Virus record (IMG/VR): IMGVR_UViG_3300025267_002170 | Reading direction: 5' to 3' (one strand) | DNA length: 64,000 nt | Source: a virus | Taxonomy: Duplodnaviria; Caudoviricetes | Shown: positions 7,637-59,325 of the stretch, one piece after another | Layout of the letters: every line of letters begins with the position of its first letter | Numbering within the stretch: position 1 is the stretch's first letter | Program-made: the position numbers and the translations under genes | The notes under the pieces: generated by a model | Database searches by the model: none | Told to the model about the DNA's origin: nothing | Seen by the model: only the letters and a program-made list of their open reading frames with translations

Positions 7637-7696
7637 ATGGACATCGTTACCATCGGGCTGGCAGCCGCTCTACTCTACCTCGCTCTCAGCCACTAG
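7637..7696 (+). CDS. 19-aa membrane peptide MDIVTIGLAAALLYLALSH (family a)
   Basis: GGGAG RBS; length and motif conserved in paralogs at 8672, 9702 and 12992. Confidence 0.7.
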   Translation: MDIVTIGLAAALLYLALSH

Positions 7697-7842
7697 GGGG
7701 CTACGCGACGTAACTCCTTATCTGACAAGGGGTTAGGGCGCGGCAGTACTGCTGCGACGTAACCTCTTACATAGCAACGACTTACATCGATTGAACGTAA
7801 CTCCTTATGTGGCAAGGGTTTACGTTCGTCATGTTATTCGGT

Positions 7843-18578: not shown

Positions 18579-18919
18579 CGTTGGACATAACTCCTTGTTT
18601 AGCAAGGGGTTATGACCGCGCGGTAGTGCGGCGACGTAACCTCTTGCCACACAACGACTTACGTAAAATGCCAAATGTAGCTAATGCTGCACTAGACATT
18701 TTGCCGATATAGAGTATAATGATAGGCATGACTTTGAAGGGGCGGCGAGCTTTGAGAGACGTTCTACCCCGCTCGCTCTCGGCTCGTCGCCCCTGTGTCT
18801 CACCTGTTCCAGTCGGCTGAAGGTCTGGGATGGTCTGTAGTCAGCGAAAACGTTAAAGTTAGGGGTTGACAAGGGCCGATAATACCTTATAATGGGGTAG
18901 ATTGAAAAGGGAAATTGAT

Positions 18920-19207
18920 ATGCTGCCGACTGTTGAAGAAAAGACCATCATCGCCACGCTTGGAAGGGCACAGGCTCGTCATAAGATTGATGAGTACACC
19001 CACGCGATGATGACGAAGATGCACAAGGAAAACCGGCCCCTGCTGGAAGCGTTGTGTCTCATTCTTAACGAGTTCAAGTTGGACGAGCGTTCCACCTGTC
19101 ATGCCATGACCATGATGAGCCTGATGTACGACTGCCTGAATACACAGGGTGAGACTAACGAATTGCACGAGATGTTCGGAGAAGAGGGCGAGACCGATGA
19201 CGCTTAA
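18920..19207 (+). CDS. Hypothetical protein
   Basis: Promoter at 18866, AAGGG RBS. Confidence 0.7.
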   Translation: MLPTVEEKTIIATLGRAQARHKIDEYTHAMMTKMHKENRPLLEALCLILNEFKLDERSTCHAMTMMSLMYDCLNTQGETNELHEMFGEEGETDDA

Positions 19208-30037: not shown

Positions 30038-30074
30038 TGCTAATACCGAAAGTTAAAAAAGAAACTGATGAGCT

Positions 30075-30425
30075 ATGAGTAGTCAGGCAACAAGAGAGTG
30101 CTGGTATAAATACATCAGACTAACTGAAGAAGAAAAGCAAGGCTTTAGGGATAAGTTAAACTTGATAGAGAAGAAAGAGTGGGACCATATTGAATACGCC
30201 ACAACAGAAGACAGAGAAGAAGGTTGGTACTTTTGGGATGAGGTTATGTATAACTCCTACGGACCATATAAAACAGAAGAAGAAGCAAGAAAAGAGATTA
30301 AAAAATACTGTGCAGAAGAATTAGGTATAGATATTCCTTCAAGCGACGGGGTTGCTGAAAAACCTAAGTTTACATTGGACGACTTAAAAGAATTGTCCAA
30401 GGAGATTCAGCAAAGTAGCGAATGA
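30075..30425 (+). CDS. Hypothetical protein (GWYFWDE...GPYKTEEEA)
   Basis: Operon packing. Confidence 0.65.
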   Translation: MSSQATRECWYKYIRLTEEEKQGFRDKLNLIEKKEWDHIEYATTEDREEGWYFWDEVMYNSYGPYKTEEEARKEIKKYCAEELGIDIPSSDGVAEKPKFTLDDLKELSKEIQQSSE

Positions 30426-31219
30426 GCATAATAAAGCCGATAGTTAAAAAACTATCACACAAATACATAGCAGGAGATTACTTTTCAGACGCCGAAGAAA
30501 TAGTAGAAAAGTTAAACTTTAAAGGCGTTTGGGGAATCTATAATCTTCTTGGAGAATCCTCTTCCAGTAGTGAAAGTCTACAAGGCTATATGGATTTGGT
30601 AAACCAATCGGGTTCGATGTTATCATCGATATCTATAAAACTATCCAATATAGACTGTAATAAAGATTTTCTGATACAGATTGCCGAAAGGGCAGACCAC
30701 TATTGTCAGCAATTAAGCGTAGACATGGAGGGGATGAGTAAGATTGACGAGACTATTCAAATAGTAAGAGAAGTAAACGAAAGTTATCCAGTTGGATGTG
30801 TTCTTCAAGCTAATATGAACAGTAGTCTGGAGTATTCTAAAACACTGGAAAATATGCACGTCAGAGTTTGTAAAGGTGCTTACTATGGCGACATACAAAG
30901 AGATAAGAAGATTAGACGTAATTTTAACAGAATAGCTAGTAGGCTCTTGAGAAATGGTTGCAGGGTTGCTTTAGCTACTCACGACCTAAGACTTGCAAAA
31001 CAGTGGTTGGGAGATGATGTAGAGTATCAATTTCTTTATGGTATAAAGCACGTTATTCCTTTCATCGAAAAAGTTAAGGAAGAACACAAAATCTCAGTGT
31101 ATATACCGTTCGGTAAAAATTGGTACGAATATTCCTTAAGGAGAATTGATGAAAATCCATTCTTAATGTTTACAGTTGCAAAAGACGTGATAAGAGAATG
31201 GTTGAAACAAAAGAAATAG
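30422..31219 (+). CDS. Monofunctional proline dehydrogenase
   Basis: YIAG, LLGE, SIKLS, VDME, VLQA, VRVCKGAY, ATHD, EYQFLYG, VYIPFG..WY.Y..RRI.ENP. Confidence 0.9.
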   Translation: MSIIKPIVKKLSHKYIAGDYFSDAEEIVEKLNFKGVWGIYNLLGESSSSSESLQGYMDLVNQSGSMLSSISIKLSNIDCNKDFLIQIAERADHYCQQLSVDMEGMSKIDETIQIVREVNESYPVGCVLQANMNSSLEYSKTLENMHVRVCKGAYYGDIQRDKKIRRNFNRIASRLLRNGCRVALATHDLRLAKQWLGDDVEYQFLYGIKHVIPFIEKVKEEHKISVYIPFGKNWYEYSLRRIDENPFLMFTVAKDVIREWLKQKK

Positions 31220-31409
31220 CAATAATACATTTAATGTATAGAAGAAACTTGGATGGAATTATATCATTCTACACTGTTCCTGTAGATATAAGAAGAAATT
31301 GGATAACAAAGTCTCTGGTATACTTTATGGCAGAGACCGTAAAGGAACTTAACAGCCTAGTAGGTTGGGAGTTTGTATGCTACTATTATAATGAATATAG
31401 GGATAAGAC

Positions 31410-32057
31410 ATGAGAAGCAAAATAAGATTAGATGAAATTAGTCAAGAGTCAGTAGATAGCGTAAAAGAATCTTTCAATAGGCTTCCTAAGACTAATCATT
31501 TGGATGGGCAATACAGGCTAAGAAGATACTCAAGAGTAAAGATAAACGAAACTTATGAGTTTTCTTATTTCAAACTTCCTCAACAGGAATTCAACCAGTC
31601 TAAAGATTACAATAAACATCAAGGGGGAATGTCTAGGACATTTGAAGACATAGAAGACGATGTAGTAAGAAGCGTGGGAATGTTAGAAATGTGCGATAAA
31701 TTTCTGGAGTCTGGAGGGTTTTCTGCCGATAATGAAATTGAGGTCCACCAGATGAGAATTATAACTTCAGGAGAAGTAACTCGAACTCAAGTTAGTCCAG
31801 AGGGAATACATCAGGATGGGTATGATTTTATCGCAATAGTGGGAATAGACAGATACAACATATCCGGGGGAAATGCTCTAGTATACAAAACTTATGGAGG
31901 AAAGCAGATATTTGATTGTCCTCTGCAACCAAAAGAAATGCTTATGATTAACGATAGACAGTTATGGCATAATGCAGGGACTATTGCGAAACTTGACCAA
32001 GACAAACAGGGTTACATGGACGCATTTATTCTAACCGCAAGGAATAATAATGGCTGA
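31410..32057 (+). CDS. 2OG-Fe(II) dioxygenase (2OG-Fe_Oxy_2-like)
   Basis: R.RRYS, HQMRI, PEGIHQDG, WH. Confidence 0.85.
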   Translation: MRSKIRLDEISQESVDSVKESFNRLPKTNHLDGQYRLRRYSRVKINETYEFSYFKLPQQEFNQSKDYNKHQGGMSRTFEDIEDDVVRSVGMLEMCDKFLESGGFSADNEIEVHQMRIITSGEVTRTQVSPEGIHQDGYDFIAIVGIDRYNISGGNALVYKTYGGKQIFDCPLQPKEMLMINDRQLWHNAGTIAKLDQDKQGYMDAFILTARNNNG

Positions 32058-32247
32058 CTTTTGTCAAGAATGCCACGACCAGTTGCTTGGACATGATATC
32101 GAGTGTGGATTAGCTGGATTAATTTCAGAAGAAAAAGTAAATCAGGGATATGTAGTAAATGTCCTGTGTGAAAGTTGTGGTTTTATTCAAGTAGACCACA
32201 ACGGTAAGAAAGTTCCTTGGTTAGATGAGAATAAAAGTAGGAAATAA
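32050..32247 (+). CDS. Small Cys-rich protein
   Basis: MADFCQEC...LCESCG..QVDHNG. Confidence 0.65.
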   Translation: MADFCQECHDQLLGHDIECGLAGLISEEKVNQGYVVNVLCESCGFIQVDHNGKKVPWLDENKSRK

Positions 32248-32497
32248 ATATTGGAACCTAGTATTCATTGAGCTAGATGAGACTACTGGTGGAGAGTGTG
32301 ACTCTCCAGACACTAAGGGAAAAGAGATAAGAATATCAACAGATTTGCAGCGTGAAGAAGAACTAGAGGTAGTCATTCATGAACTCCTACACGCATCAGA
32401 TTGGTCTAAGGACGAAGAGTGGGTTGAAGAAATAGCCCAAGACATATCTAATGTACTAATGAGACTAGGATGGAAAAAGAATGGAACCAAAACCTAA
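32225..32497 (+). CDS. HExxH metallopeptidase-like protein
   Basis: IHELLHA. Confidence 0.65.
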   Translation: MRIKVGNKYWNLVFIELDETTGGECDSPDTKGKEIRISTDLQREEELEVVIHELLHASDWSKDEEWVEEIAQDISNVLMRLGWKKNGTKT

Positions 32498-32900
32498 AAT
32501 CGGATTCACCTGCTCCTGTTTTGACTTGCTTCACGCAGGGCATGTCGCTATGCTGGAGGAGGCTAAGAACAATTGCGAACATTTGATAGTCGGGTTGCAA
32601 ATAGACCCGAGCCTAGAAAGGGATGGGAAAAGTAAACCCATACAGTCTCTAGTAGAAAGGCAGATACAGCTACGAGCCTGTAAATATGTTGACGAGATTA
32701 TAGTATACAAAACAGAAAAAGATTTAAAGACAATACTAAAAACGCTACCAATAAACATAAGATTCTTAGGAGAGGAATATACAATAGAGAACTTTACTGG
32801 AAAGAAACTGTGTAAAGAAAAAAGGATACGAATCTACTACAACAAGAGAAGGCATAAGTTTTCGTCTTCTGAATTGAAGGAAAGGATTAAAGATGTCTAG
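32481..32900 (+). CDS. Cytidylyltransferase (TagD-like)
   Basis: FDLLHAGH, KYVDEI, SSSELK. Confidence 0.9.
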   Translation: MEPKPKIGFTCSCFDLLHAGHVAMLEEAKNNCEHLIVGLQIDPSLERDGKSKPIQSLVERQIQLRACKYVDEIIVYKTEKDLKTILKTLPINIRFLGEEYTIENFTGKKLCKEKRIRIYYNKRRHKFSSSELKERIKDV

Positions 32901-33486
32901 ATTTGATGCTCCTGTTGAGGAAAGAACTCTCCATAATTACATTGACGAAGCTAGGTCAATGATTGGGAGGTGGGGTCAGATGTGGATGCTAACAGATGAT
33001 GACGTTATCGCAAACGTAGCAAATGCCATTATGAGAGCAGAACACGACTTCGACCCAACGAGAGGATGTAAGAGGGTGACGCTTAGGTGTACCTACGGAC
33101 GTAGGGCTATCATTAAAGAGTTTAGAACCCTTAACAGACTATCAAAAAGACCAACACATTTTTCTATAGATGTAGAACGGATTGGAAACGACGGTCGTGT
33201 ATATTCAAACGCAGCAAAAGAAATAGAAGACCACAGAGAATCGATAGAAGAGTACATCAACAAAAAGGAAGAGGCCACTAAACAGAAAAGAATAGCTCAA
33301 AAGGTTCTTAAGAACAAGTGTCTTACAGAAAAGCAGAGAAAATATCTAAAGATGCACTACCTTAAAGGAAAGAGCGTAAGAGAGATAGCTCAAATTAGGG
33401 GATGTAGCAAGCAGGCAGTTAGTCAGGTTCTTCAAGGGGGTCTATCTAGCCTGCAAAAAACATTCGTAGGAAAGGCGGTAGCATAA
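32893..33486 (+). CDS. Sigma70-like sigma factor
   Basis: FDPTRG in region 2; region-4 HTH LTEKQ...SVREIAQIRGCSKQAVSQ. Confidence 0.8.
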   Translation: MSRFDAPVEERTLHNYIDEARSMIGRWGQMWMLTDDDVIANVANAIMRAEHDFDPTRGCKRVTLRCTYGRRAIIKEFRTLNRLSKRPTHFSIDVERIGNDGRVYSNAAKEIEDHRESIEEYINKKEEATKQKRIAQKVLKNKCLTEKQRKYLKMHYLKGKSVREIAQIRGCSKQAVSQVLQGGLSSLQKTFVGKAVA

Positions 33487-33899
33487 TGAAAACCATAGCT
33501 TTGAGCGGTGGGTTCGACCCGGTACACATCGGACATTTGAGAATGATGCAGGAGGCGTCTACTTTTGGTAGAGTTATTATTATTCTCAATAGTGACGAGT
33601 GGTTAATTTCTAAGAAGGGGTATATGTTTATGACTTATGATGAGAGAAAGGAAATTCTTGAAGGACTTTCTTGCGTCTCGGAAGTAGTGTCAGTAGACGA
33701 CTCAGATAGCACAGTATGTGAAACAATTGAGAGACTAAGACCTGACTACTTCGGTAATGGTGGAGACAGAAAGAATGATAATGTTCCAGAAGTTGAGCTA
33801 TGTGAAAGGTTGGGAGTTAAATTAGTCTGGAACCTTGGTGGACCCAAGATTCAATCGTCTAGTGATTTAGTTGATTCACAACAAGAGCTAAAAAAGTGA
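33486..33899 (+). CDS. Cytidylyltransferase-like nucleotidyltransferase
   Basis: SGGFDPVHIGH, NGGDR, KIQSSS. Confidence 0.9.
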   Translation: MKTIALSGGFDPVHIGHLRMMQEASTFGRVIIILNSDEWLISKKGYMFMTYDERKEILEGLSCVSEVVSVDDSDSTVCETIERLRPDYFGNGGDRKNDNVPEVELCERLGVKLVWNLGGPKIQSSSDLVDSQQELKK

Positions 33900-41393: not shown

Positions 41394-41846
41394 ATGTCGA
41401 AAATCCTAGACCGTTCTATCGAGATTGCCTATCAATTGTTCCCAACAGCGTATGAAAAGAAAAAAGGCTACCGGGCTTTCCACTTTGCTTTCGGATGGAA
41501 GAAGCGCAGGCTTCTAGCTATAGGCCAGAACGACACTTATAACCAAAGCGCGAAAGCTCTGTGGTTTGCTAAGAGGTTCAACAACAAAAAGCAAATCACC
41601 TACCCATTTCTACACGCTGAAGTAGACCTAGTCAGCAAACTGTGGGGAAAGATTTATGTTGATAATTCTGTTAAAGTTGTAGTATTAAGAATAAACAGTA
41701 GGGGAGAGTTGCAAAATAGCAAGCCGTGTAAGTCGTGTATGAATATGATTTCCGTTCTTGGGATTGATAAGGTCTGGTGGTCAGTCTCGACTGGAGATAT
41801 AGTTTCTTTACATGAGCAGGGGATTTATAACAATGGGGATGAGTGA
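41394..41846 (+). CDS. Cytidine/CMP deaminase-fold protein
   Basis: HAE and SKPCKSC. Confidence 0.75.
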   Translation: MSKILDRSIEIAYQLFPTAYEKKKGYRAFHFAFGWKKRRLLAIGQNDTYNQSAKALWFAKRFNNKKQITYPFLHAEVDLVSKLWGKIYVDNSVKVVVLRINSRGELQNSKPCKSCMNMISVLGIDKVWWSVSTGDIVSLHEQGIYNNGDE

Positions 41847-42801
41847 TATTATACTTAAGCTGGATGTTCTTGGAAAGGGAATATTGGCAGCGGACGAAAG
41901 CATTCCGACCATAAAGAGTCGGTTTGAATCAGTGAGTATAACCTCAACGCCAGAGACCAGACACGATTATCGTCATACAATCTTTTCAACTAAGGGACTG
42001 CAAGAGTTTATAAGCGGGGTAATTCTTTTTGATGAAACTATCAACAATGAAGCAACAATTAAACCCTTGATTGATTCCAAAATAGCGCTTGGAATCAAGG
42101 TTGACACCGGAGCGAAGCCATACAACTCTCACATGCAGGGGGAGAGGTTCACAGAGGGTCTTGACGGCCTCTCAGAGCGTCTCAGGGGCTACAAAAGGCT
42201 CGGAGCCGAGTTCGCCAAGTGGAGGACGGTTCTGGCCCCAAAGACAACTGTTAATTGCTTAAGAGCAAACGCTAACGCTCTTGCTATTTATGCAAAAAAG
42301 TGTCAGAAAGAGGGTATAGTTCCCATAATAGAACCAGAAATTCTAATGGATGGAAACCACGGCGCTCTTAAGTCCTTTAATATCACTGAACACTGTCTTC
42401 ACTGTGTTTTTCATGAACTATGGAAAGAGAGGGTAGAGCTTGAGAGTATTATACTCAAGCCGAACATGGTGGTTTCTGGTTACAAGAATGAAAAAAGAAT
42501 TCGACCGGAGGTTGTTGCGGAACTAACAATAGCTTGCTTTAAGAGAACGGTTCCGTCTGCTGTTCCTATTATTGCTTTTCTTAGTGGTGGACAACCAAAT
42601 GATGAGTCTGTACAAAACCTTAATGCTATGAATCAGGAGTCTCCTGATTTGTTTCATTCTTGGTATTTAACATTTTCGTTCGGTAGAGAGCTACAGAAAA
42701 GCGCTCTAAAACAATGGTCGCTTGGTCATAAAGACGAAGCACAAAAACAACTTTTAAAGAAGGCGAAAGATTGCAGTAACGCTACATGGGGTGAACTGTG
42801 A
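41839..42801 (+). CDS. fba: Fructose-bisphosphate aldolase class I (eukaryote-type family)
   Basis: GKGILAADES, KVDTG, GLDGL, FAKWR, PIIEPE, LKPNMV, FLSGGQ, FSFGRELQ. Confidence 0.95.
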   Translation: MSDIILKLDVLGKGILAADESIPTIKSRFESVSITSTPETRHDYRHTIFSTKGLQEFISGVILFDETINNEATIKPLIDSKIALGIKVDTGAKPYNSHMQGERFTEGLDGLSERLRGYKRLGAEFAKWRTVLAPKTTVNCLRANANALAIYAKKCQKEGIVPIIEPEILMDGNHGALKSFNITEHCLHCVFHELWKERVELESIILKPNMVVSGYKNEKRIRPEVVAELTIACFKRTVPSAVPIIAFLSGGQPNDESVQNLNAMNQESPDLFHSWYLTFSFGRELQKSALKQWSLGHKDEAQKQLLKKAKDCSNATWGEL

Positions 42802-42989
42802 GTCTTATTTATAAGTGTGACGAGAGTATGGGAGATTTCCATTGGGAAACTAAAGCCTATACATCTACGGGGAAAAAAGAAGTATCTATAATTCAAACTT
42901 GGTTTGATGGGACCGAGACTGTTTCTAAACAAACAGTAGTTCTTCTTTCTGATGAATTTATAGAAATAGCAAAGAAGCTATAGACAACT

Positions 42990-43061
42990 GCCCCCGTAGT
43001 TCAACGGTTAGAACGCCGTTCTTATAAAGCGGTAACGTGAGTTCGACTCTCACCGGGGGTA
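42990..43061 (+). tRNA. tRNA-Ile(UAU)
   Basis: Full cloverleaf; anticodon arm CCGTT-CTTATAA-AGCGG; T arm GTGAG-TTCGACT-CTCAC; CCA not encoded. Confidence 0.9.
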
Positions 43062-43217
43062 TTTAAAATGATGAAGACCTGTTTACATTTTGCTTATTGT
43101 TTGTGTTGGATTACGGCTGTGGTTAGCTTTATTTTCAATGGAAACGTATCAGAATCGAATTACTTCATACTTTGGGGTATAGTAAACTATCTACTATGGA
43201 GAGACGCTAAATAAAAT

Positions 43218-43552
<335 letters not shown>

Positions 43553-43600
43553 CTATGATTAATTTGTTGGACTGTTTGGAAATTTTGGAAGGACACCTAA

Positions 43601-43915
43601 ATGACTAACTACGTTTCACAGAACCAGAAAAATAGTGTCAAAAAGATTCACTTTAATTGCAAACTAGACGGGATATCTAGAACCAGTTTTAGGTTTACTG
43701 AGATTACACCCAGAACTCAAAGCAAAATTTTTGGCAAAGATGGCGGCACAGGTTGTGTGTTAGGAACAAACTTTACAACTATTGAAGATGTGATGCACGC
43801 AATTGGTTGCGATTTGTTTGGAGAAACAAGATACAAAGTAACAATTACAGCGGAAGAACTTCCAAATGCCAAAAAAAAGAGACCAAAAAAAGAAAGCCAG
43901 AGAGAAACGGGTTAG
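43601..43915 (+). CDS. Hypothetical protein
   Basis: AAGGA RBS. Confidence 0.6.
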   Translation: MTNYVSQNQKNSVKKIHFNCKLDGISRTSFRFTEITPRTQSKIFGKDGGTGCVLGTNFTTIEDVMHAIGCDLFGETRYKVTITAEELPNAKKKRPKKESQRETG

Positions 43916-44048
43916 ACAGAAGCTCCTTAAAAGAAGAACTCTCAAGAGAGAGGAGAGGAAACTTCAAAAGGAGATAGAAAAAATCCAGTGGGACAATAGA
44001 GAGCGGATTACTCCCATAAGGAACCCCGATAAGGATAAAGATGGCTAA
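43866..44048 (+). CDS. Small very basic protein
   Basis: K/R-rich; coupled to the next gene. Confidence 0.5.
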   Translation: MPKKRDQKKKAREKRVRQKLLKRRTLKREERKLQKEIEKIQWDNRERITPIRNPDKDKDG

Positions 44049-44295
44049 ATTTTACATCGAATCTGGCGACATTAAGATTATAACGGAATCAAAGACTCCT
44101 TTTGGCGCCTGTTTAAAAGTAATAAAAATTATATCGGCACAATTTGGTAATGACAGTATAAATAAGTCTGTTAATCTTAGCGATACTTTTATGGTTACTG
44201 AAACGGGATTTCCTTCTGAAAGAAGGCCGTATTCAGTTCATAGTGGGGAGCATATTTTTAAAACTGAGACCGTTTTGGGCAGAGGTAGCGCATAG
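44041..44295 (+). CDS. Hypothetical protein
   Basis: MAKFYIESG; operon packing. Confidence 0.6.
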   Translation: MAKFYIESGDIKIITESKTPFGACLKVIKIISAQFGNDSINKSVNLSDTFMVTETGFPSERRPYSVHSGEHIFKTETVLGRGSA

Positions 44296-44301
44296 AATTG
44301 C

Positions 44302-44375
44302 GCCCTCGTAGCTCAACAGGACAGAGCAACGGTCTTCTAAACCGTAGGTTGCAGGTTCGAGTCCTGCCGAGGGTA
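44302..44375 (+). tRNA. tRNA-Arg(UCU)
   Basis: Cloverleaf; ACGGT-CTTCTAA-ACCGT; GCAGG-TTCGAGT-CCTGC. Confidence 0.95.
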
Positions 44376-44392
44376 CTGAGAGAGGTTTTGTA

Positions 44393-44842
44393 ATGACTAC
44401 CAAGAGACTCATAGTAGATTGTGATGGGGTTATTGCCGACAAAAACAATGGTGGCAATTACGCAAATGCTGGACCTTTAAAACACGGCATAGAGCAAGTA
44501 AATAAGCTATACGATATGGGATATGAAATTATCCTGTATACTGCAAGGTATGGGGATAGAGAAACCGGAAATATACATCGTCAGTATGAACGTGGATATA
44601 GAGAATGGACCGATTGGTTAGAGAAATATGGTGTAAAATACACCTGCGCTTGGATGGGAAAGCCAGCCGGTGCTCTTTATATTGACGACAAAGCGGCCAG
44701 AGTTAGAGGAGATGATGAATCTGGCTGGGATGAAGTATGGAAAGAGGTTGACGCATTGAAGGATAAAGATAAATACGGAAATTTAATAATAGAAGAATTA
44801 GATACTGATGGCAAGGGAATTGCTTACAATATCAAGGCATAA
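44393..44842 (+). CDS. HAD-superfamily phosphatase (capsule-biosynthesis type)
   Basis: DCDGVI, YTAR, GKP, YIDDKA. Confidence 0.85.
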   Translation: MTTKRLIVDCDGVIADKNNGGNYANAGPLKHGIEQVNKLYDMGYEIILYTARYGDRETGNIHRQYERGYREWTDWLEKYGVKYTCAWMGKPAGALYIDDKAARVRGDDESGWDEVWKEVDALKDKDKYGNLIIEELDTDGKGIAYNIKA

Positions 44843-44844
44843 AG

Positions 44845-45369
44845 ATGAGACTAGACCATATAGCATACAGAGTAAAATCTAGAGAAGAGGCTGCTAGCTT
44901 TTTGTCCGCTATATTGGGATATAAAGTTGGGACCGAGTTTGAGATTGTCTTCGATGATAATTCTACTGCTAAATGTATTGCTATGGTTCCCCCGGAGAAA
45001 ATGTTTAATGTTATTAACATAGAACCGGGAGGTCTTAGGCATGTTGCCCCAGAAATATTTATATCTGACGGTGATGAGGACTCGATAGTCGGACAGTGGG
45101 TTGAAGCGAGGGATGGGGTTGGTGGTGTTCATCATATGGCATATCAGGTTGTAGAAATTGACAGCAGGGTTAAAGAATGGAGAGAGGCAGGAGTAGAATT
45201 TCTTACCGATGATGTTATAGATTGTCCAGAAGACAACCTGAGACAAATTTTTACCAAACCACTTAAAAACCTAGGCGAAATTATTATCGAATTGATTGAA
45301 AGAGGTGATAAGGGATTCTGTCAAAATTCTGTTAAACATCTCATGGAATCAAGCAAGGATTGCAAATGA
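44845..45369 (+). CDS. VOC-family metalloenzyme (HPPD C-domain-like)
   Basis: DHIAYRV, GGVHHMAYQV, LRQIFT, ELIER..KGF. Confidence 0.8.
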   Translation: MRLDHIAYRVKSREEAASFLSAILGYKVGTEFEIVFDDNSTAKCIAMVPPEKMFNVINIEPGGLRHVAPEIFISDGDEDSIVGQWVEARDGVGGVHHMAYQVVEIDSRVKEWREAGVEFLTDDVIDCPEDNLRQIFTKPLKNLGEIIIELIERGDKGFCQNSVKHLMESSKDCK

Positions 45370-46871
45370 CTACATATCAAGGAATTATCAGACAAAATAT
45401 GGTTGGAAATCATTATATTAATGGTTCCTTTATTTGCAATAAGAATTCAGAGTCTTTTGATAGTATTAACCCTGCTACTGGTGAAGTAGTCGGGACTTTT
45501 CCCGAGGCCAGCATTCCAGAGGTGGAATCTGCATACCAGTTTGCAAGAGACTCCTTTCAGGGATGGAGGAAATACAGCAGAGTAAAAAGGGCTGAATACT
45601 TCCTGACTCTAGCCAATTTGGTTGAACAAAGGCGTGAAGAAATTGCCGAAGCAATAACCCTTGAGACTGGAAAAGTTTTCAACGAGTCTATTGCCGAGGT
45701 AAATGAAGCTCTACACATGGCCCAGTACGCTTTCAGCACCGGGAAAATGCCTTATGGAGAAGCACTCGCGTCTGAGTTACCTGAAAAAGACGCCTATATG
45801 CTTCGCAAGCCAAAGGGTGTGGTCGCGATTGTTGCTCCTTTTAACTTTCCTTTTGCTATTGGCGGCTTCTGGTGCGCTGCACCCGCTCTGGTAGAAGGCA
45901 ACACTGTAATTCTAAAGCCAAGTGAAGACACTCCCTTGGTTGGAGAAATCACCGCCGAACTGTTTAACGATGCGGGATTTCCTCCCGGCGTATTTAATCT
46001 TGTTCACGGAGACGGAAGAGTTGGCAACGGTCTTATTAGACAAGACGTTGACCACGTTTGTTTTACTGGAAGTGCTGAGGTGGGAATGCACATAAGAAAG
46101 GTCTGTGCCGAAAGCTGGCATAAAACCTGCTCTTGTGAGATGGGGAGCAAGTCAGCGGTAATTATTCATGAGGACGCTAACTATGAGATGGCAATGGCTG
46201 CATGCTTGGCCAGCGCTTACAAACTATCTGGCCAACGCTGTGTGTCTGCTAGCAGACTGATTGTTCACAGAAGCCTGTATGATAAGTTTGCAGACGAATT
46301 TGCTAACAGGAGCGGAGACCTCAAAACCGGCAACCCATTTTTAAAAGACACTTTTTACGGTCCTCTAATCAACAAGAAACAACTTGATAGAGTTGTTTGG
46401 TTCAATAAGATGGTTGCCGCAGACCCAGAAGCAAATGTTCTACTCATGGGAGAGCAGGTAGAAGACAGCCTGTTCTTAACACCTACTGTATATCAAACGG
46501 AGTGGCGAGATGTTCCATATCTCAAACAAGAAGTGTTTGGACCTCATGTATCAATCATTCCTTACGATACAATTGATGATGCTATTAGGATTTACAACGA
46601 TACTGATTATGGACTTGCTCTAGGTGTGGTTACGGAGAACTTTAAAGTTGCTAGAAGAATTCGTAACGAGTGCGACTTTGGCCTTGGCTATTGGAATGGC
46701 GGTAGCATTGCTGCTGAAAGTCATCTTGGCTTTGGAGGAGTAAAGAAGTCTGGAAACGGACAGCCTAGCGCAGCCAGAACCTTTAGGGCGGTTACACACG
46801 AAGTTTCGTGGACCGTCAATCATGGTGACTCATTGAACTTTCCACAGGGAATGAAAGCTGGGACCGAGTAA
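45366..46871 (+). CDS. Aldehyde dehydrogenase (semialdehyde/P5C dehydrogenase candidate)
   Basis: PFNFP, KPSE, FTGS, EMGSK, SGQRC, EVFGP, FGGVKKSGNG. Confidence 0.95.
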   Translation: MTTYQGIIRQNMVGNHYINGSFICNKNSESFDSINPATGEVVGTFPEASIPEVESAYQFARDSFQGWRKYSRVKRAEYFLTLANLVEQRREEIAEAITLETGKVFNESIAEVNEALHMAQYAFSTGKMPYGEALASELPEKDAYMLRKPKGVVAIVAPFNFPFAIGGFWCAAPALVEGNTVILKPSEDTPLVGEITAELFNDAGFPPGVFNLVHGDGRVGNGLIRQDVDHVCFTGSAEVGMHIRKVCAESWHKTCSCEMGSKSAVIIHEDANYEMAMAACLASAYKLSGQRCVSASRLIVHRSLYDKFADEFANRSGDLKTGNPFLKDTFYGPLINKKQLDRVVWFNKMVAADPEANVLLMGEQVEDSLFLTPTVYQTEWRDVPYLKQEVFGPHVSIIPYDTIDDAIRIYNDTDYGLALGVVTENFKVARRIRNECDFGLGYWNGGSIAAESHLGFGGVKKSGNGQPSAARTFRAVTHEVSWTVNHGDSLNFPQGMKAGTE

Positions 46872-47236
46872 TGTTTTTCATGGAAGAAAAAGATTTTATT
46901 AACAGCGTTCTTCATGATAAAGTTACAATCAATAATAGCAAAATTCATGACAAGGGACTTTTTGCTGTATCAGATATTGAAAAAGACACCACTCTTCATG
47001 TGACACATGTGCATAAGGAATTAGTAGACTATGTAGGAGCCTTGTGCGGCTGGATTAATCTAACTCCAAACAATCAATACAATCACTCTAAGGAAAGAGA
47101 AAACTGTAAAATAGTTACGGATGGCCTTACCAAGGGCTTGGTAACTTTAAGGAATATAATTGCAGGAGAGGAGCTACTAGTAGACTATACAAAGGATTTA
47201 GAACTAGAGCAACCTGAACCCGGCTGGAAGCCATGA
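46871..47236 (+). CDS. SET-domain protein
   Basis: SKIHDKGLFA, YNHS, I.AGEELLVDY. Confidence 0.85.
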   Translation: MFFMEEKDFINSVLHDKVTINNSKIHDKGLFAVSDIEKDTTLHVTHVHKELVDYVGALCGWINLTPNNQYNHSKERENCKIVTDGLTKGLVTLRNIIAGEELLVDYTKDLELEQPEPGWKP

Positions 47237-48036
47237 GTAAAATACTTTTATGCAATCCATCATGCTACTCGATAGAGTATGAAATAAACCCTTGGATGGA
47301 TACAAACAATAAACCAGACCAACGAATCTCTGAAAAGCAATGGAATTTACTTCACGATACGCTTTTAAGATGCGGAGCAGAGCTTGTATATATAAGCTCT
47401 GAACCAAAAGTTCCAGACATGGTGTTTGTTGCCAACGCTGGAATAGTCAAGGGCAATACTGTTGTATTATCCAATTTTAAACACCCAGAGAGACAAAAAG
47501 AAAAACAGTATTACAAAGACTGGTTTCTAAAAAATAATTATAGAGTCATTGAAATCCCCGAGCATCTTAATTTTGAAGGTGCTGGGGATGCTTTATTTTT
47601 TAACGACATACTATTTATGGGGTATGGTTTTAGAACTGACCTAGCTGCTCACAAATTGGTGGCTACCGCACTAAATGTTGACTATACATCCTGTGAATTA
47701 ATAGACCCTCGATTTTATCATTTGGACACCTGTTTTCTACCAATACAAAACAGAGTAGTGTATTACAGAAAAGCTTTTTCTAATAGTTCTGCAAACAAGA
47801 TGTTAAAGACTCTTTTAAATGAATCACAGAGAACCAATCAGTATCTTGATATAGTTAATGTATGCGAAGGTCTTGCAAAACAATTTGTTTGCAATAGCAT
47901 TTGCATAGGTGAAAATATAATAACTCCCTCTAAAGATTGTGCTTCAGTATTTTATGATAACGTAATAAACTACTGCGACATGTCGGAGTTTATAAAAGCA
48001 GGAGGAGCGGTAAAATGTCTAACACTTCAGTTATAG
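47233..48036 (+). CDS. Amidinotransferase superfamily enzyme, arginine dihydrolase (ArgZ N-domain)/DDAH-like
   Basis: INPWMD, PDMVFVANAG, ER..E, FEGAGD, GYGFRT, FYHLDTCF, EFIKAGGAVKCLTL. Confidence 0.9.
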   Translation: MSKILLCNPSCYSIEYEINPWMDTNNKPDQRISEKQWNLLHDTLLRCGAELVYISSEPKVPDMVFVANAGIVKGNTVVLSNFKHPERQKEKQYYKDWFLKNNYRVIEIPEHLNFEGAGDALFFNDILFMGYGFRTDLAAHKLVATALNVDYTSCELIDPRFYHLDTCFLPIQNRVVYYRKAFSNSSANKMLKTLLNESQRTNQYLDIVNVCEGLAKQFVCNSICIGENIITPSKDCASVFYDNVINYCDMSEFIKAGGAVKCLTLQL

Positions 48037-49217
48037 ATAGATTATCAAAGCATATACTAGTCGACGGGTTTCATCTCGCTGTTGACCAGAAGAAAAGCTC
48101 TGGTTCTTGGATAGTAGACCTAGATGGAAACAAGTATCTAGATTGTTATTCACAGTTCGCTAGTCAGCCTCTTGGCTGGAATCATAAAGCGTTGGTAAAT
48201 GCAAAGCAGGAGCTTGGAGAAGTCGCCATGCATAAAATTGCCAACAGCGACATGTATACTGAGCAGTATGCTACATTTGTAGAAAAGTTTTCTAGCATCA
48301 CTCCAGACTTTAGTCACTATTTTTTCATTGATGGGGGTGCTTTAGCTGTAGAAAACGCACTAAAGGCAGCGTTCGACTGGAAAGCAAAAAAGCTAGGGAT
48401 AACCAGTGACGAAGACATTAACACCCTAGATGTTTTTCATTTGGGTAATGCCTTTCATGGCAGAACCGGATACACCCTCTCACTGACAAACACTACGCCG
48501 GAAAAAACAGACTTGTTTCCGAAGTTTCAGTGGAATAGAATATGGAGCATTGAGGACGCAGAGGAATTGATGCACGACAGAGTGGCCGCAATGGTAGTTG
48601 AGCCTATTCAGGGCGAAGGTGGAGACAACCATTTTGTCCCAGAACTTTTCCCCCTAATGAGGAAGTGGGCAGACGATAACGACGTTATTCTAATATTTGA
48701 TGAGGTTCAGACTGGCGTTGGCCTTACAGGGAAAATGTGGTGCTATGAACATTTTGGAATAGTTCCCGACATGATGTGTTTTGGTAAAAAGACGCAAGTC
48801 TGTGGATTCTGCTCAACTGACAGGATAGACGAGGTGGAACACAATGTATTCAATGATAGTGGTAGGATTAATTCTACTTGGGGTGGGAATATTGTTGATA
48901 TGGTTAGATTCGGACACATAATAGATGCTATTGAAAAAGAAAACCTTGTCGATAACGTACACGAGGTCGGAAGCCATCTTGAAAATGCTCTAAATAATCT
49001 GGATATTATTTCTAATGTTAGAGGCATGGGTCTAATGATTGCTTTTGATTTAGATACTCCTGACCTAAGAGACCAAATGGTTTCTTTATTGCAAGAAGAC
49101 ATGATTGTTCTTAAGTCTGGAACCCACTCAATTAGGCTTAGACCACCATTGACCTTTTCAAAGCAAGACGCGGACTCGGCGGTAGTCTTTATAGACAGAG
49201 CGGCAAACAAGCTATGA
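48015..49217 (+). CDS. lat: L-lysine 6-aminotransferase-like class III aminotransferase
   Basis: HILVDG, GALAVENALKAAFDWK, AFHGRTGYTLSLTNT, EPIQGEGGD, FGKKTQV, RINSTWGGN. Confidence 0.88.
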   Translation: MSNTSVIDRLSKHILVDGFHLAVDQKKSSGSWIVDLDGNKYLDCYSQFASQPLGWNHKALVNAKQELGEVAMHKIANSDMYTEQYATFVEKFSSITPDFSHYFFIDGGALAVENALKAAFDWKAKKLGITSDEDINTLDVFHLGNAFHGRTGYTLSLTNTTPEKTDLFPKFQWNRIWSIEDAEELMHDRVAAMVVEPIQGEGGDNHFVPELFPLMRKWADDNDVILIFDEVQTGVGLTGKMWCYEHFGIVPDMMCFGKKTQVCGFCSTDRIDEVEHNVFNDSGRINSTWGGNIVDMVRFGHIIDAIEKENLVDNVHEVGSHLENALNNLDIISNVRGMGLMIAFDLDTPDLRDQMVSLLQEDMIVLKSGTHSIRLRPPLTFSKQDADSAVVFIDRAANKL

Positions 49218-50074
49218 AAATACAAAATGTAGGAATAATAGGTCAGGGCTTTGTTGGAAGCGCTTTGCGTAATACGTTTGAAAATTATTATAATGTATAC
49301 ACTTACGATAAATTTCAAGTAGACAAGTCTACCCACACAAGCATTCAATCACTGTCTAGAGCCTGTGAAGTTATCTTTGTTTGTGTTCCTACGCCCATGA
49401 ATAAAGATGGCTCTTGTGACATATCAATAGTTACAGATGTTGTAAAAATAGCCTGTAGTACCGGAAGAAAAAATATAATAGCAATCAAGTCTACAGTACC
49501 CCCCAACACTACAAAATCTTTACAAGACCTATGCCAAGATTCTCACATAGTCTTCAATCCTGAATTCCTATTAGAGAGAAATGCAGAAGAAGACTTTAAG
49601 AATACCACTCGTGTTATCCTTGGTGGTCCGAGACCGGCAACAACATTACTAAAACAATTCTATTCAAGAATATTTCCTGACGCAGACATAGTAAAAACTG
49701 ATTCAACAATTGCTGAAATGATTAAATATTTAACCAATACATTTTTAGCAGTCAAAGTATCTTTTGCCAACGAAATTTATGCAATCTGTGAAAGTTTAGG
49801 TATAGATTACGATAAGGTACTGGAATACTCTCTCTACGACGATAGACTGGGACGTTCTCATTGGTCGGTTCCGGGTCCAGATGGACATTACGGATTCGGA
49901 GGAAGCTGTTTCCCCAAGGACTTAAATGCTTTAATGCATCTGACTCACTCTATGTGCATCCAAGCGAATACAATAAGTGGCGCATGGAATACCAACCTAA
50001 TGGTTAGGCCGGAGAAGGACTGGGAAAGCTTGAAGGGAAGGGCAGTAGTAGACAGTCCTGAAAATAACACCTAG
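49214..50074 (+). CDS. UDP-glucose/GDP-mannose 6-dehydrogenase family
   Basis: GQGFVG, CVPTP, KSTVPP, FNPEFL, GFGGSCFPKD. Confidence 0.92.
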   Translation: MKIQNVGIIGQGFVGSALRNTFENYYNVYTYDKFQVDKSTHTSIQSLSRACEVIFVCVPTPMNKDGSCDISIVTDVVKIACSTGRKNIIAIKSTVPPNTTKSLQDLCQDSHIVFNPEFLLERNAEEDFKNTTRVILGGPRPATTLLKQFYSRIFPDADIVKTDSTIAEMIKYLTNTFLAVKVSFANEIYAICESLGIDYDKVLEYSLYDDRLGRSHWSVPGPDGHYGFGGSCFPKDLNALMHLTHSMCIQANTISGAWNTNLMVRPEKDWESLKGRAVVDSPENNT

Positions 50075-50091: not shown

Positions 50092-50559
50092 ATGCCCACT
50101 AGCAATAATGAAGCTCTCAATATAGTTGAAATACTTGATGAATACCTAGACGAAGAACAAGCTAGGGAACTAACAGCGCGTCTAGAACAAGAGATAGGGC
50201 AAAAAACCGAAAACGACTCTCTGAAAGTAAGCCTAGAAATGCTGAAGGCTTTATACGAGAGAAAGCCAAAGAGAGAAAATCTTTGCAAGAAAGCGATACT
50301 ATACTCAATTGTATCATTTCATATGTTTATTATAGTAGTAAATATAATGGCCTTCTTTGTTCTTCCCTTTATGTATCCTCTCTGGATGTGGGTTCCAGTT
50401 AATAGTTTTATTCTTACTGTTACATTCACAAGAGAGGTTTGCCCTCTTACGAGACTTGAGAACTATCTCAGAACATCACTTGGGATGTCTCGTATTGGAG
50501 GATTTATCGGTCACTATTTCGTAAAACCAGTTAAGAGGGCGATTAAGAATGCCGCCTAG
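50092..50559 (+). CDS. Membrane protein (CPLT.LE motif, DUF2784-like)
   Basis: Two TM helices plus CPLTRLENYLR. Confidence 0.65.
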   Translation: MPTSNNEALNIVEILDEYLDEEQARELTARLEQEIGQKTENDSLKVSLEMLKALYERKPKRENLCKKAILYSIVSFHMFIIVVNIMAFFVLPFMYPLWMWVPVNSFILTVTFTREVCPLTRLENYLRTSLGMSRIGGFIGHYFVKPVKRAIKNAA

Positions 50560-57303: not shown

Positions 57304-59325
57304 ATGAATAAGCTAATATTCTCAATCGTTTTTGGATTGGGTGTGTTGCTTTCTAGCATCGCAGAAGCAAAACCCCTAACGATGGACCAAGCCCTAGAGG
57401 CTGTTTGTAGAGTCAGTACAAGTGGAGCTAGAGGAAGCGGTACAGTATTTGCAGAAGACGAAGATAAGTATTTTATTCTAACTAATGGACACGTTATAGA
57501 CCGCGCCAGAAGAGGGCATGTAGAATTTTTTCAGAGTGGCTACAAGTCTGCCATGCTACCGTTTAAGACTGAATATGTCGAATATAAAGATGGCACTGCT
57601 CTTGACCTAGCCGTAATTTCTGTAAAAAAGAAATACTTTGGTAGATATCCACCAAGAATTATCCCTCTTGCCCCAAAGGGTACAGAAATCAAGCCAAACG
57701 ATTATATTATGGCTGGCGGTTGTCCAAGCGGACAGTGGGCCATGGCTTGGTACGGTAGAGTTATAAGAAATACCGGTGCTGTCGTAAGCTTTAACGCTGC
57801 TCCAATAGGTGGTCAATCTGGTAGTGGCGTTCTCGTCCTAATCAAAGATGAAAAGGATGAACTTCAAACTCGCATAGGTGTTTTACTTGCTTGGCGAGTC
57901 GGAGATGGCGCTTGGACAGACGATGGACCAGATGACTACGGCGCTGGTCTATCTCTTAAACAAATCTATGAAATTATTGAAGGTAACGGTCATGGACATC
58001 CAATCGAAACTTCTTACAGAGTTGTCCGCGATGGCCACGACCACCCAAAAGAAAAAACTTCTAAGCCCCAACCGGAACGAATGAAAAAGGTTTGCCCTCA
58101 ATGCAAGCAAGGGATGGGTGAACATATCATAATTCCAGAAAAGGGTGGCCTAAGAAGAACCAAAAACGGCGAATTCATGTACTGCCCCATTGTAACTCTT
58201 GAAGATGGCAGCATGCGCAAGAGTCTAGATTTCTTTAAGGGCATAAAGATTAAAGAGCTATATAACGGAGAAGGTCTTTTCCCTTGGTGTCCATTCAACA
58301 ACCCGTGCCCACCACCAAACCCAAACCCACAGCCACCCGGAGGTGGTCCCCCAGATGGTGGAGGCGGGTTCAATGGTTGGCCGGGAAGACCAGACCCCGG
58401 TGGTCCTGTAGAACCGGGTCCAGACTTCGACAAAGAACGTCAAGAATATCTTGATATGATTGTAGAGCTTAAAGAGAAGCTAACAAATTTAGAAGCCCTG
58501 CATGAAAGTCTAAAGGCTGAATTGTCTGGGGTATCTGGGAACCTATCAAGTTCTCAAAACGAAATCAATGGACTGAAAGACCTTCTCGGAAGAGTTGAAG
58601 GCGAAAAGGGTTCGCTTTCTTCTAGGATAGAAAACCTGCTTGTTTTAATTGGCAAAAAGGATAAGTTAATCGAAGGCTCAGAACATTACCTTGATGATAT
58701 GACTGGCGGAAACGGTAACACTGTAGAAAACGTTAGTCTAACCCTAGGTGGCATGAGCCTTGGGGCGTTGGCTCTAAAATATGGAGTGCCTTTGGTACTA
58801 GGAAGAATTGGAAGAAGGCGTCGAAGGAAAGATGAAGAAGAAGAAGAAGAAGAAAATGAAGAAAATTGTGACAATGAGACAGAGGGATTGGGGTATAATA
58901 GTGATGATGGCTGTGATTGTGAATCTAAGAAACATGAGCATATTCATGAACATTTTCACAAATATGAACATCCCAATGGCGGGTTTGTCATGACGCCAGA
59001 TGAGCTTCCAAACCCTCAAACTACTTACGAGATAGATGAAAACTTGAAGAATCAAGTAGAGGGGAGCAGCGGACTCAATCCGGGCTTTGTTCCCTACGGT
59101 CTTCCAGTTTCTTCGCCATACTATCAACAACCAGTAGCTGCTCATGGCCTCCCGCCTCAGTTTATTAACATTCCTTTCGCTACAAGAAAGAAAGTTACCG
59201 CTGAGCAAATCATGACTATAATTGGAGAACTAGTCAACGAATATACTGATGACCAAACCATGACTGTTAATCAAATTAACACGCTACTTAGACAAAGATT
59301 GAAAGAAAAATTTAACGTCGACTAA
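57304..59325 (+). CDS. Exported trypsin-like serine protease with Pro-rich linker, coiled coil and hydrophobic segment
   Basis: Signal peptide; TNGHV, DLAVI and GGQSGS triad motifs. Confidence 0.8.
   Translation: MNKLIFSIVFGLGVLLSSIAEAKPLTMDQALEAVCRVSTSGARGSGTVFAEDEDKYFILTNGHVIDRARRGHVEFFQSGYKSAMLPFKTEYVEYKDGTALDLAVISVKKKYFGRYPPRIIPLAPKGTEIKPNDYIMAGGCPSGQWAMAWYGRVIRNTGAVVSFNAAPIGGQSGSGVLVLIKDEKDELQTRIGVLLAWRVGDGAWTDDGPDDYGAGLSLKQIYEIIEGNGHGHPIETSYRVVRDGHDHPKEKTSKPQPERMKKVCPQCKQGMGEHIIIPEKGGLRRTKNGEFMYCPIVTLEDGSMRKSLDFFKGIKIKELYNGEGLFPWCPFNNPCPPPNPNPQPPGGGPPDGGGGFNGWPGRPDPGGPVEPGPDFDKERQEYLDMIVELKEKLTNLEALHESLKAELSGVSGNLSSSQNEINGLKDLLGRVEGEKGSLSSRIENLLVLIGKKDKLIEGSEHYLDDMTGGNGNTVENVSLTLGGMSLGALALKYGVPLVLGRIGRRRRRKDEEEEEEENEENCDNETEGLGYNSDDGCDCESKKHEHIHEHFHKYEHPNGGFVMTPDELPNPQTTYEIDENLKNQVEGSSGLNPGFVPYGLPVSSPYYQQPVAAHGLPPQFINIPFATRKKVTAEQIMTIIGELVNEYTDDQTMTVNQINTLLRQRLKEKFNVD

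Follow-up and report, generated by a model that had tools for sequence, protein, structure and literature searches.

Which pathway, if any, is encoded by a cluster of metabolic genes in a marine phage? We asked this of a 64,000-nt stretch of an uncultured marine phage (IMG/VR record IMGVR_UViG_3300025267_002170; "the window" below means this whole stretch), which carries a run of genes for a VOC protein, an aldehyde dehydrogenase (ALDH), a SET-domain protein, an ArgZ-N-like hydrolase and an aminotransferase of the L-lysine 6-transaminase (LAT) family. An earlier reading of the letters alone (the original prediction) had proposed that this operon and two dispersed genes take arginine through ornithine and proline to glutamate, and lysine to 2-aminoadipate. 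Our analysis favors, with a probability of roughly 0.5, a phage auxiliary module for the breakdown of basic amino acids that is centered on an aldehyde hub. Within this module the predicted branch from lysine to 2-aminoadipate semialdehyde and then 2-aminoadipate is well supported, and the predicted step from arginine to ornithine reasonably so.

An eight-gene unit conserved as a set

Open reading frames (ORFs) and domain searches placed the five genes on the plus strand at 44845-49217, tightly packed and with stops overlapping starts, as had been described. The real unit is longer at both ends, running from a HAD-like gene at 44393 to a DUF2784 gene ending at 50559. It holds eight co-directional genes, including a UGDH-like gene:

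44393 to 44842, plus strand: HAD-IIIA-like small phosphatase (TIGR01689, 54 bits)
44845 to 45369, plus strand: VOC protein, single-domain, 174 aa (PF13669/PF00903)
45366 to 46871, plus strand: aldehyde dehydrogenase, 501 aa (PF00171, 430 bits)
46871 to 47236, plus strand: SET-domain protein, 121 aa (PF00856, 28 bits)
47233 to 48036, plus strand: ArgZ-N/DDAH-like hydrolase, 267 aa (NF052232, 238 bits; NF045659, 215 bits)
48015 to 49217, plus strand: LAT-family class III aminotransferase (TIGR03251, 478 bits)
49214 to 50074, plus strand: UGDH-family dehydrogenase, 286 aa (TIGR03026, 199 bits)
50092 to 50559, plus strand: DUF2784 protein (PF10861)

Neighbors overlap by 4 nt (VOC/ALDH), 1 nt (ALDH/SET), 4 nt (SET/ArgZ-N), 22 nt (ArgZ-N/LAT) and 4 nt (LAT/UGDH-like). 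The ORF list starts ALDH at a TTG (45360); the ATG at 45366 yields the 501-aa product of the gene callers, and this start overlaps the stop of VOC as ATGA.

Purifying selection on all eight genes is strong, with ratios of non-synonymous to synonymous substitution (dN/dS) of 0.03-0.10 against L001, a relative that is 88-95% identical (0.05 for the HAD-like gene and 0.04 for DUF2784). The identical LAT protein occurs on 43 blocks of 50-200 kb contigs from many samples. The set VOC-ALDH-ArgZ-N-LAT is found on ~20 IMG/VR contigs, at identities from 52-57% (ArgZ-N) to 77-82% (ALDH), as well as on many ENA/JGI contigs. Because the gene order recurs across contigs and dN/dS is low, the arrangement is not due to chance. 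A second phage group has the order VOC-UGDH-like-ALDH-ArgZ-N-LAT and a third (L091 type) VOC-ALDH-ArgZ-N-LAT-x-FBA-SDH-like-OCD, FBA being a class I fructose-bisphosphate aldolase, SDH a saccharopine dehydrogenase and OCD an ornithine cyclodeaminase; the set therefore survives rearrangement. The conserved order and the selection bear out the view that the phage carries a multi-enzyme unit and not single auxiliary genes, and the expected co-occurrence in related phages was likewise found. Cultured relatives did not turn up when LAT, ALDH and VOC were run by tblastn against 50,697 phage records; the only close matches there were in two uncultured huge phages, LR756511 and LR756504.

LAT and ArgZ-N as the firm assignments

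Judged by scores and aligned residues, LAT is the firmest assignment in the operon, and LAT and ArgZ-N together are the firm ones. The LAT protein has a class III aminotransferase fold (PF00202, 285 bits), in which FGKKTQVCG aligns with the Lys300 that binds pyridoxal 5'-phosphate. It scores 349 bits to M. tuberculosis LAT versus ~150 bits for acetylornithine aminotransferases, the next family, as the original prediction of a Lat-like enzyme would have it. Aligned to 2CIN, it keeps equivalents of Phe167, Arg170, Glu243, Lys300, Asn328, Thr330 and Arg422. Some of these (the Glu243 switch, Arg170, Arg422 and Asn328/Thr330) have LAT-specific roles in the M. tuberculosis LAT structures. We infer that the phage enzyme is an L-lysine 6-transaminase forming 2-aminoadipate semialdehyde and 1-piperideine-6-carboxylate (P6C); ornithine is a possible second substrate.

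The hydrolase had been called ArgZ-N/DDAH-like, and only the first half of that name holds. Among structure-database sequences it scores 198 bits to ArgZ and 186 bits to AgrE N-domains, versus 34 bits to DDAH1; the DDAH models NF045658 (33 bits) and NF045660 (48 bits) agree in rejecting the second half. The catalytic Cys, His and Asp and the equivalent of Asn71 are kept, the stretches KCLTL, FYHLDTCF, FEGAGD and FVANAG aligning with ArgZ. At 267 aa, the protein covers residues 6-268 of a 696-position model and has no fused C-terminal domain; LAT is the next gene. It is about as close to the model for mycobacterial Rv2323c (NF045659, 215 bits, cut-off 300). Rv2323c is needed for growth on arginine and adjoins the class III aminotransferase gene rocD (PMC4569260). 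Both nearest characterized relatives thus act in arginine breakdown, and Rv2323c is also paired with an omega-aminotransferase. On these grounds the stand-alone ArgZ-N-like enzyme, which has the guanidino-group-modifying fold, is predicted to be an arginine dihydrolase, converting arginine to ornithine, CO2 and two NH3.

In trees, the ArgZ-N and LAT copies of module loci are each monophyletic, the sole apparent outsiders being truncated module contigs. Among viral loci the ArgZ-N-LAT pair occurs only beside VOC-ALDH. Most viral loci with ArgZ-N, giant-virus-like contigs among them, have it alone, as bacteria do, and other viral contigs have LAT alone. In many bacterial genomes the gene immediately before LAT encodes an ALDH, which is either GucD-like or a bona fide P6C dehydrogenase; some of these LAT-adjacent ALDHs pass the P6C dehydrogenase model. 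No bacterial genome locus has ArgZ-N, VOC or UGDH-like beside LAT, and the bacterial neighborhoods of stand-alone ArgZ-N homologs were uninformative. One 3.7-kb contig from a Dehalococcoidia metagenome-assembled genome (L127, CAYUCO010000084.1) has ArgZ-N (50%), LAT (65%), UGDH-like (78%) and DUF2784 (78%) in the phage order, and is probably a phage fragment binned with a bacterium.

A wider phage module points to one aldehyde

We scanned IMG/VR with a VOC alignment and tabulated the neighbors within 10 kb for 80 loci. VOC is always the first gene of the module, and ALDH follows it directly in 57 of the 80 loci. An SDH-like gene, also called LysDH-like below for its likeness to L-lysine 6-dehydrogenase, lies 2-5 kb downstream in 42/80; UGDH-like is present in 18, ArgZ-N in 15 and LAT in 14. 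In many phages the unit VOC-ALDH-(HAD)-SDH-like is compact and has replication genes on either side. When all ORFs at the 80 loci were clustered without bias, no other metabolic gene was seen to travel with the module.

A profile of 20 SDH-like proteins matches the L-lysine 6-dehydrogenase 3ABI at 138 bits over nearly its full length, followed by the saccharopine dehydrogenase domain of AASS (72 bits), saccharopine reductase (64 bits) and carboxyspermidine dehydrogenase (CASDH; 24 bits). 3ABI is the P. horikoshii enzyme (PMC10413350). The similarity to it is remote, and no NCBIfam model matches the gene. All of its close relatives make or use 2-aminoadipate semialdehyde. We rejected a CASDH/polyamine identity for it: CASDH matches the Rossmann part only. 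These module genes are not mentioned in a published survey of viral polyamine genes. The LysDH-like gene is absent from the window and, in a search run with a positive control, from G001, a CheckV-complete 161-kb relative with the window's operon type. It occurs twice in the 103-kb record of L091 (G002), at 18045-19130 in the module and at 95817-96893, ~77 kb apart. In the L003/L116 group, a VOC-ALDH-ArgZ-N-LAT-UGDH-like-LysDH-like block sits with RNase T inside a split DNA polymerase III alpha gene, whose parts in L116 are at 5850-7769 (PHP and core) and 14563-16248 (finger and HHH).

The phage ALDHs of trio loci (VOC-ALDH-LysDH-like) and of ArgZ-N/LAT loci together form one phage-only clade (support 100/99). 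The window's member belongs to the ALDH superfamily (PF00171), with the catalytic Cys (C294, GQRC), the general-base Glu (E260, CEMGSKS), the oxyanion Asn (N162, PFNFP) and the NAD-binding motifs (KPSE, FTGSAEVG) all intact. Loss of catalytic residues, which would have spoken against the proposed chemistry, was thus seen in none of LAT, ArgZ-N and ALDH. With P6C dehydrogenases and bacterial LAT-adjacent ALDHs the phage ALDH shares a Glu at GK+4 and the Arg that precedes the catalytic Cys, the residues by which ALDH7A1 binds aminoadipate. LAT and the LysDH-like gene take the same slot after the same ALDH clade, and this swap independently points to aminoadipate semialdehyde as the hub. The ALDH would accordingly be, as far as motifs and neighbors indicate, an NAD(P)-dependent hub enzyme oxidizing 2-aminoadipate semialdehyde and possibly also glutamate semialdehyde.

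The proposed pathway and what weighs against it

We suggest the following scheme. LAT would transfer the epsilon-amino group of L-lysine to 2-oxoglutarate, giving glutamate and 2-aminoadipate semialdehyde (in equilibrium with P6C), which ALDH would oxidize to 2-aminoadipate with formation of NAD(P)H. ArgZ-N would turn arginine into ornithine, CO2 and two ammonium ions. The same LAT and ALDH may then convert the ornithine to glutamate; alternatively, host enzymes or an OCD homolog encoded elsewhere in the window would handle it. If LAT uses ornithine, by analogy with the mycobacterial roc cluster, the joint arrival of ArgZ-N and LAT would be explained, as would the retention of LAT alongside the LysDH-like gene in some lineages. 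The net effect during infection would be that nitrogen of lysine and arginine, plausibly from degraded host protein, ends up as ammonium and glutamate, with reduced cofactors gained; peptidases, which these phages also encode, may fit such a route from protein to nitrogen. As to history, a widespread marine-phage trio (mini-HPPD-like VOC, ALDH and LysDH-like) would have gained the ArgZ-N-LAT pair once, a single insertion being suggested because the module copies of each are monophyletic. The window's lineage would then have lost the LysDH-like dehydrogenase, with LAT taking its place. Gene content, conservation, selection, conserved residues, nearest characterized relatives and co-occurrence are the observed basis of this scheme; what the enzymes act on, which way the flux runs and how the phage benefits are all inferred from them.

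Several points count against this scheme. First, the enzymes fall short of curated thresholds: LAT scores 478.4 bits with TIGR03251 (cut-off 520.8), yet 265 above the next family (213), ArgZ-N lies below the arginine dihydrolase models (NF052232, 237.6 < 450; bifunctional NF052231, 230.7 < 1025), and ALDH below those for P6C dehydrogenase (NF050084, 269 < 730) and 1-pyrroline-5-carboxylate (P5C) dehydrogenase (305 < 648). Second, the ALDH clade is not placed beside any characterized subfamily, and a tree with bacterial LAT-adjacent ALDHs and paralogs gave no sister group. GQRC also occurs in an unrelated ALDH paralog, and its Arg is thus not unique to the P6C dehydrogenase group. Of the predicted route from lysine to aminoadipate by Lat and a semialdehyde dehydrogenase, then, the LAT residues and the ALDH-LAT pairing hold up, and the placement of ALDH with Pcd/RocA does not. 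Third, the simple scheme leaves the conserved VOC and UGDH-like genes without a role, and the lineages that hold both LAT and the LysDH-like gene call for an extra assumption. Fourth, nearly every gene in these phage genomes overlaps its neighbor, and overlapping starts and stops are for this reason a weak sign of shared function. Finally, the module often has glycan genes beside it: glycosyltransferases on both sides in L114, and nearby genes for a GDP-mannose 4,6-dehydratase (GMD) or an epimerase in L091 and L290.

Dispersed genes and the longer route through proline

The original prediction went further than our scheme, taking arginine to ornithine (ArgZ-N), proline (OCD), P5C (proline dehydrogenase, ProDH) and glutamate (ALDH) in parallel to lysine and aminoadipate. 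All four enzyme families are indeed in the window, two of them away from the operon:

1557 to 2489, minus strand: OCD/mu-crystallin family enzyme (PF02423, 257 bits)
30422 to 31219, plus strand: short, monofunctional ProDH homolog (PF01619, 39.5 bits)

The enzyme at 1557-2489 belongs to the OCD family as predicted and is nearest to archaeal alanine dehydrogenase (AlaDH; TIGR02371, 242 bits; 1OMO, 196 bits) rather than to true OCD; the caveat that it might be an alanine dehydrogenase was well placed. The 1-pyrroline-2-carboxylate (Pyr2C) reductase scores 150 bits, true OCD (P. putida 1U7H) only 84, and all OCD models are below cut-off. We regard it as a dispersed candidate for a cyclodeaminase or imine-reductase step. 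Its gene overlaps that for GMD by 4 nt (window 1557-3520, minus strand; L295:404-2397), and the order w3524-GMD-OCD-w1146-HNH-w191 is conserved in G001, which thus retains an OCD gene. OCD homologs lie near the module in three other lineages (3.5 kb upstream in L003/L116, directly after LysDH-like in L091, and near it in L214), and a link between OCD and module is plausible.

The ProDH is real, as had been claimed: PF01619 gives 39.5 bits against a cut-off of 27, the monofunctional ProDHs 4H6Q and 2EKG match at 71 bits, and the C-terminal motif YxxRRxxE is kept (YSLRRIDE at residue 237); NF045947 gives 95 bits, below its cut-off of 500. It stands in a separate gene group, 13 kb away from the operon, with a FadB-like crotonase on one side and a PF10014 oxygenase on the other. 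This group, at 29051-33899, comprises a FadB-like enoyl-CoA hydratase (29051-30037), a 116-aa ORF, ProDH, the PF10014 2-oxoglutarate-Fe oxygenase (31410-32057) and two CTP_transf_like genes around a sigma-like gene. We take PF10014 to be a family of free amino-acid hydroxylases. A carbapenem-like CarB/CarD/CarC identity for the crotonase, ProDH and oxygenase was considered and is unsupported, the crotonase being FadB-like. A single-sequence scan of IMG/VR found no ProDH relatives, and an alignment scan only three contigs that were already known. In IMG/VR the short type occurs in one other phage group, where it abuts ArgZ-N near an Ldh_2-family dehydrogenase and an M19 dipeptidase, with neither crotonase nor PF10014 oxygenase beside it. 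This recurrence hints at an arginine/proline theme in marine phages.

ProDH is absent from G001, which carries the same operon, and we regard it as lineage-specific and its link to the operon as weak. The longer route thus has on its side the presence of all four families, the OCD homologs near the module in other lineages and in G001, the ProDH beside ArgZ-N in the only other phage group found, and the kept ProDH motif. Set against these are the missing ProDH in G001, the company that ProDH keeps 13 kb away, an OCD homolog that resembles archaeal AlaDH and Pyr2C reductase and is syntenic with GMD on the other strand, and an ALDH that is not of the RocA/PutA type of P5C dehydrogenase in any test run. 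Taken as a whole, the predicted route is weaker than the lysine branch and the arginine step, and we consider this longer scheme unlikely.

Accessory genes and a possible link to glycans

UGDH-like, SET, HAD-like and DUF2784 have no assigned step in the proposed pathway. The HAD-like protein (54 bits with TIGR01689, below the cut-off of 162) is an optional module member, found in 26-31 of the 80 VOC loci, and weakly resembles a capsule phosphatase. The SET protein, a minimal SET domain, carries the motifs NHS and ELLVDY and has PBCV-1 vSET as its weak best match; the gene adjoins the module in few lineages (the window, L001 and L006). Its motifs suggest that it is probably a protein-lysine methyltransferase, an accessory and not a pathway step. 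DUF2784 is syntenic with the operon in L001, L002, L007, L010, L012-14 and L092 and is co-inherited with it in the window's lineage.

The UGDH-like protein exceeds the cut-off of TIGR03026 (199 versus 189.8 bits) with N-terminal and central domains only. The C-terminal nucleotide-binding domain is missing: matches end at model position 293/413 and at about residue 300 of solved structures. There is no variation in the catalytic Cys motif GFGGSCFPKD or at the other catalytic positions of UGDH. Homologs elsewhere lie among glycosyltransferases, NeuB and an OCD gene, and the protein is possibly glycan-related rather than part of the pathway. Marine metagenomes abound in UGDH-family proteins of ~280 aa that lack the UDP-binding domain, with single clusters occurring on >100 contigs. 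In other phages (L211:7001-7855; L213:6012-6863) the gene lies beside a PALP-family enzyme, glycosyltransferases, NeuB or OCD.

Such neighbors suggest another purpose for the module, namely to make a building block from lysine, ornithine or arginine, for example 2-aminoadipate, pipecolate, an opine-like N-carboxyalkyl amino acid or a modified sugar substituent, for use in the large glycan machinery of the phage or in some other phage process. The glycosyltransferases on both sides of ALDH-ArgZ-N-LAT in L114, the GMD or epimerase genes in L091, L290 and altogether 9 of the 80 VOC loci, the coupling of OCD to GMD in the window and G001, the company of the UGDH-like homologs and the HAD-like gene in the unit all fit such a biosynthetic role, as does the occurrence of imine reductases and reductive condensing enzymes in the SDH/LysDH and OCD families. 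It is nevertheless improbable to us: the commonest form, VOC-ALDH-LysDH-like, sits between replication genes and needs no glycan gene beside it, an aldehyde-oxidizing ALDH would compete with reductive use of the aldehyde, ALDH-LAT is a catabolic pair in bacteria, and no ligase or transferase that attaches amino acids is conserved with the module.

The VOC protein and its place in the module

The VOC protein matches only the C-terminal domain of the HPPD model TIGR01263 (44.6 bits, cut-off 277). It has the 2-His-1-Glu metal site of HPPDs (H5, H96/H97 and E149, invariant in 10 homologs) and lacks their two-domain architecture and curated score. Its C-terminal motifs QIFTKP, ELIER and GF..N are those usual in the catalytic domains of HPPDs and hydroxymandelate synthases. 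A structure model of moderate confidence falls, by Foldseek, among methylmalonyl-CoA epimerases, hydroxymandelate synthases and HPPDs, and the methylmalonyl-CoA epimerase ranks equally high as the HPPD-type matches. No Pfam match to HGLS/DUF1338 was found in the VOC protein. A weak language-model lead to a viral HGLS cluster and a structural likeness to chorismate-mutase-fused VOC proteins fit a 2-oxo-acid substrate, and a 2-oxo acid is what we propose. In the ESM Atlas, giant viruses are the only recorded source of a cluster of 110 short (~226 aa) HGLS/DUF1338 "2-oxoadipate dioxygenase/decarboxylase" proteins, which suggests that lysine-catabolic chemistry also occurs in eukaryotic viruses.

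HglS converts 2-oxoadipate to 2-hydroxyglutarate, and HPPD-like chemistry thereby serves in lysine catabolism. By analogy, the phage VOC may act further down on a 2-oxo acid such as 2-oxoadipate, a speculative step to which we give a real but minority chance. A bolder version is that LysDH-like or LAT, ALDH and an iron VOC performing HglS-type decarboxylation of 2-oxoadipate form a self-contained lysine-oxidizing trio that carries lysine carbon to 2-oxoglutarate, to which ArgZ-N/LAT adds, in some lineages, the stripping of nitrogen from the host proteome for nucleotide synthesis. We hold this full trio, too, to be improbable. Least convincing of all is that no single pathway exists and independent auxiliary genes share one early/middle region, ArgZ-N and LAT acting separately on host pools and VOC-ALDH serving, for example, in aldehyde or 2-oxo-acid detoxification or as a ring-cleavage-type dioxygenase with its semialdehyde dehydrogenase: the solitary ArgZ-N and LAT genes described above, the near-equal ALDH scores for a dozen subfamilies (including the hydroxymuconic semialdehyde, KGSA and betaine aldehyde dehydrogenase models), the many chemistries of small single-domain VOC enzymes and the ubiquity of gene overlap in this genome would allow it, but the restriction of the ArgZ-N-LAT pair, one clade per gene, to the side of VOC-ALDH, the survival of the set through changes of gene order and the single aldehyde to which LAT and LysDH-like both point make it distinctly improbable.

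Genomic setting

The viral context is sound, with SSB, rIIB, sigma factors, a tmRNA and two tRNAs around the operon. The RNA genes lie just upstream of it (42989-44376). Neighboring and distant features of the window include:

4724 to 5245, minus strand: MotA/ExbB-like small protein
41812 to 42801, plus strand: class I fructose-bisphosphate aldolase (FBA; NF033379, 370 bits, cut-off 250)
42989 to 43062: tRNA-Ile(TAT)
43218 to 43553: one-piece tmRNA, tag peptide AEKQFALAA
44302 to 44376: tRNA-Arg(TCT)
57304 to 59325: 673-aa protein with a Trypsin_2 domain

At least four lineages have FBA no more than a few kb away from the VOC-ALDH module (L091:9649-10713, L094, L119:12436-13404 and L214:11577-12551); in L091 and L119 it comes after a conserved 140-aa ORF that follows LAT. 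A scan of 41-53 kb for promoters and terminators gave none above shuffled controls.

Meaning and comparison with known systems

Phage auxiliary genes are known mostly as single steps in photosynthesis or in nucleotide, sulfur or phosphate metabolism. Here, a multi-enzyme unit, by our reading for amino-acid catabolism, is conserved, selected and rearranged as a set across several large marine phage groups, and LAT and a LysDH-like enzyme replace each other in one operon slot. In the hits seen, three of its families are largely or wholly viral: the mini-HPPD-like VOC, the phage ALDH clade and the UGDH-like form that lacks the nucleotide-binding domain. If the breakdown module is what we propose, lysine and arginine, the common amino acids richest in nitrogen, would end up as ammonium and glutamate in infected cells. 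This would bear on how viruses are supplied with nitrogen to replicate their genomes in nutrient-poor water, and on the compounds that such cells release. Should the trio with an HglS-type VOC prove true, it would represent a class of auxiliary pathway that is new, catabolic and multi-step, and would give the HPPD fold a new minimal form. A literature search returned nothing relevant on phage arginine dihydrolase, DDAH, LAT, lysine-degradation auxiliary genes or this module.

The closest known system is the bacterial LAT-Pcd route of lysine catabolism (M. tuberculosis Rv3290c; lat/pcd of Streptomyces and Flavobacterium), which shares a LAT with the key residues and an ALDH upstream in one operon. 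The phage version is phage-borne, its ALDH belongs to a phage-only clade and not to NF050084, ArgZ-N stands between ALDH and LAT, and VOC, UGDH-like and SET are extra. With cyanobacterial ArgZ/AgrE of the ornithine-ammonia cycle (6JUY, 6LRF) the hydrolase shares the N-domain, its best structural-database match, and the catalytic motifs, whereas the phage protein is a stand-alone 267-aa form that lacks the C-terminal domain bearing AgrE's second activity, ornithine cyclodeaminase. The mycobacterial roc cluster (Rv2323c and rocD; PMC4569260) likewise sets an arginine-use gene of the same fold beside a class III omega-aminotransferase; the phage aminotransferase is of the LAT family and not RocD/OAT, the hydrolase stays below the Rv2323c model's cut-off (215 < 300), and the biochemistry of Rv2323c is itself not fully defined. 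The third trio gene resembles, remotely, the P. horikoshii L-lysine 6-dehydrogenase/saccharopine dehydrogenase family and would, like LAT, form aminoadipate semialdehyde, but it is missing from the window and G001. VOC resembles HPPD and hydroxymandelate synthase in its 2-His-1-Glu set and C-terminal motifs, with one 174-aa domain instead of two. The enzyme families are known; what is new, as far as we found, is the way they are combined, how widely this combination occurs in marine phages, and the minimal form of VOC and of UGDH-like.

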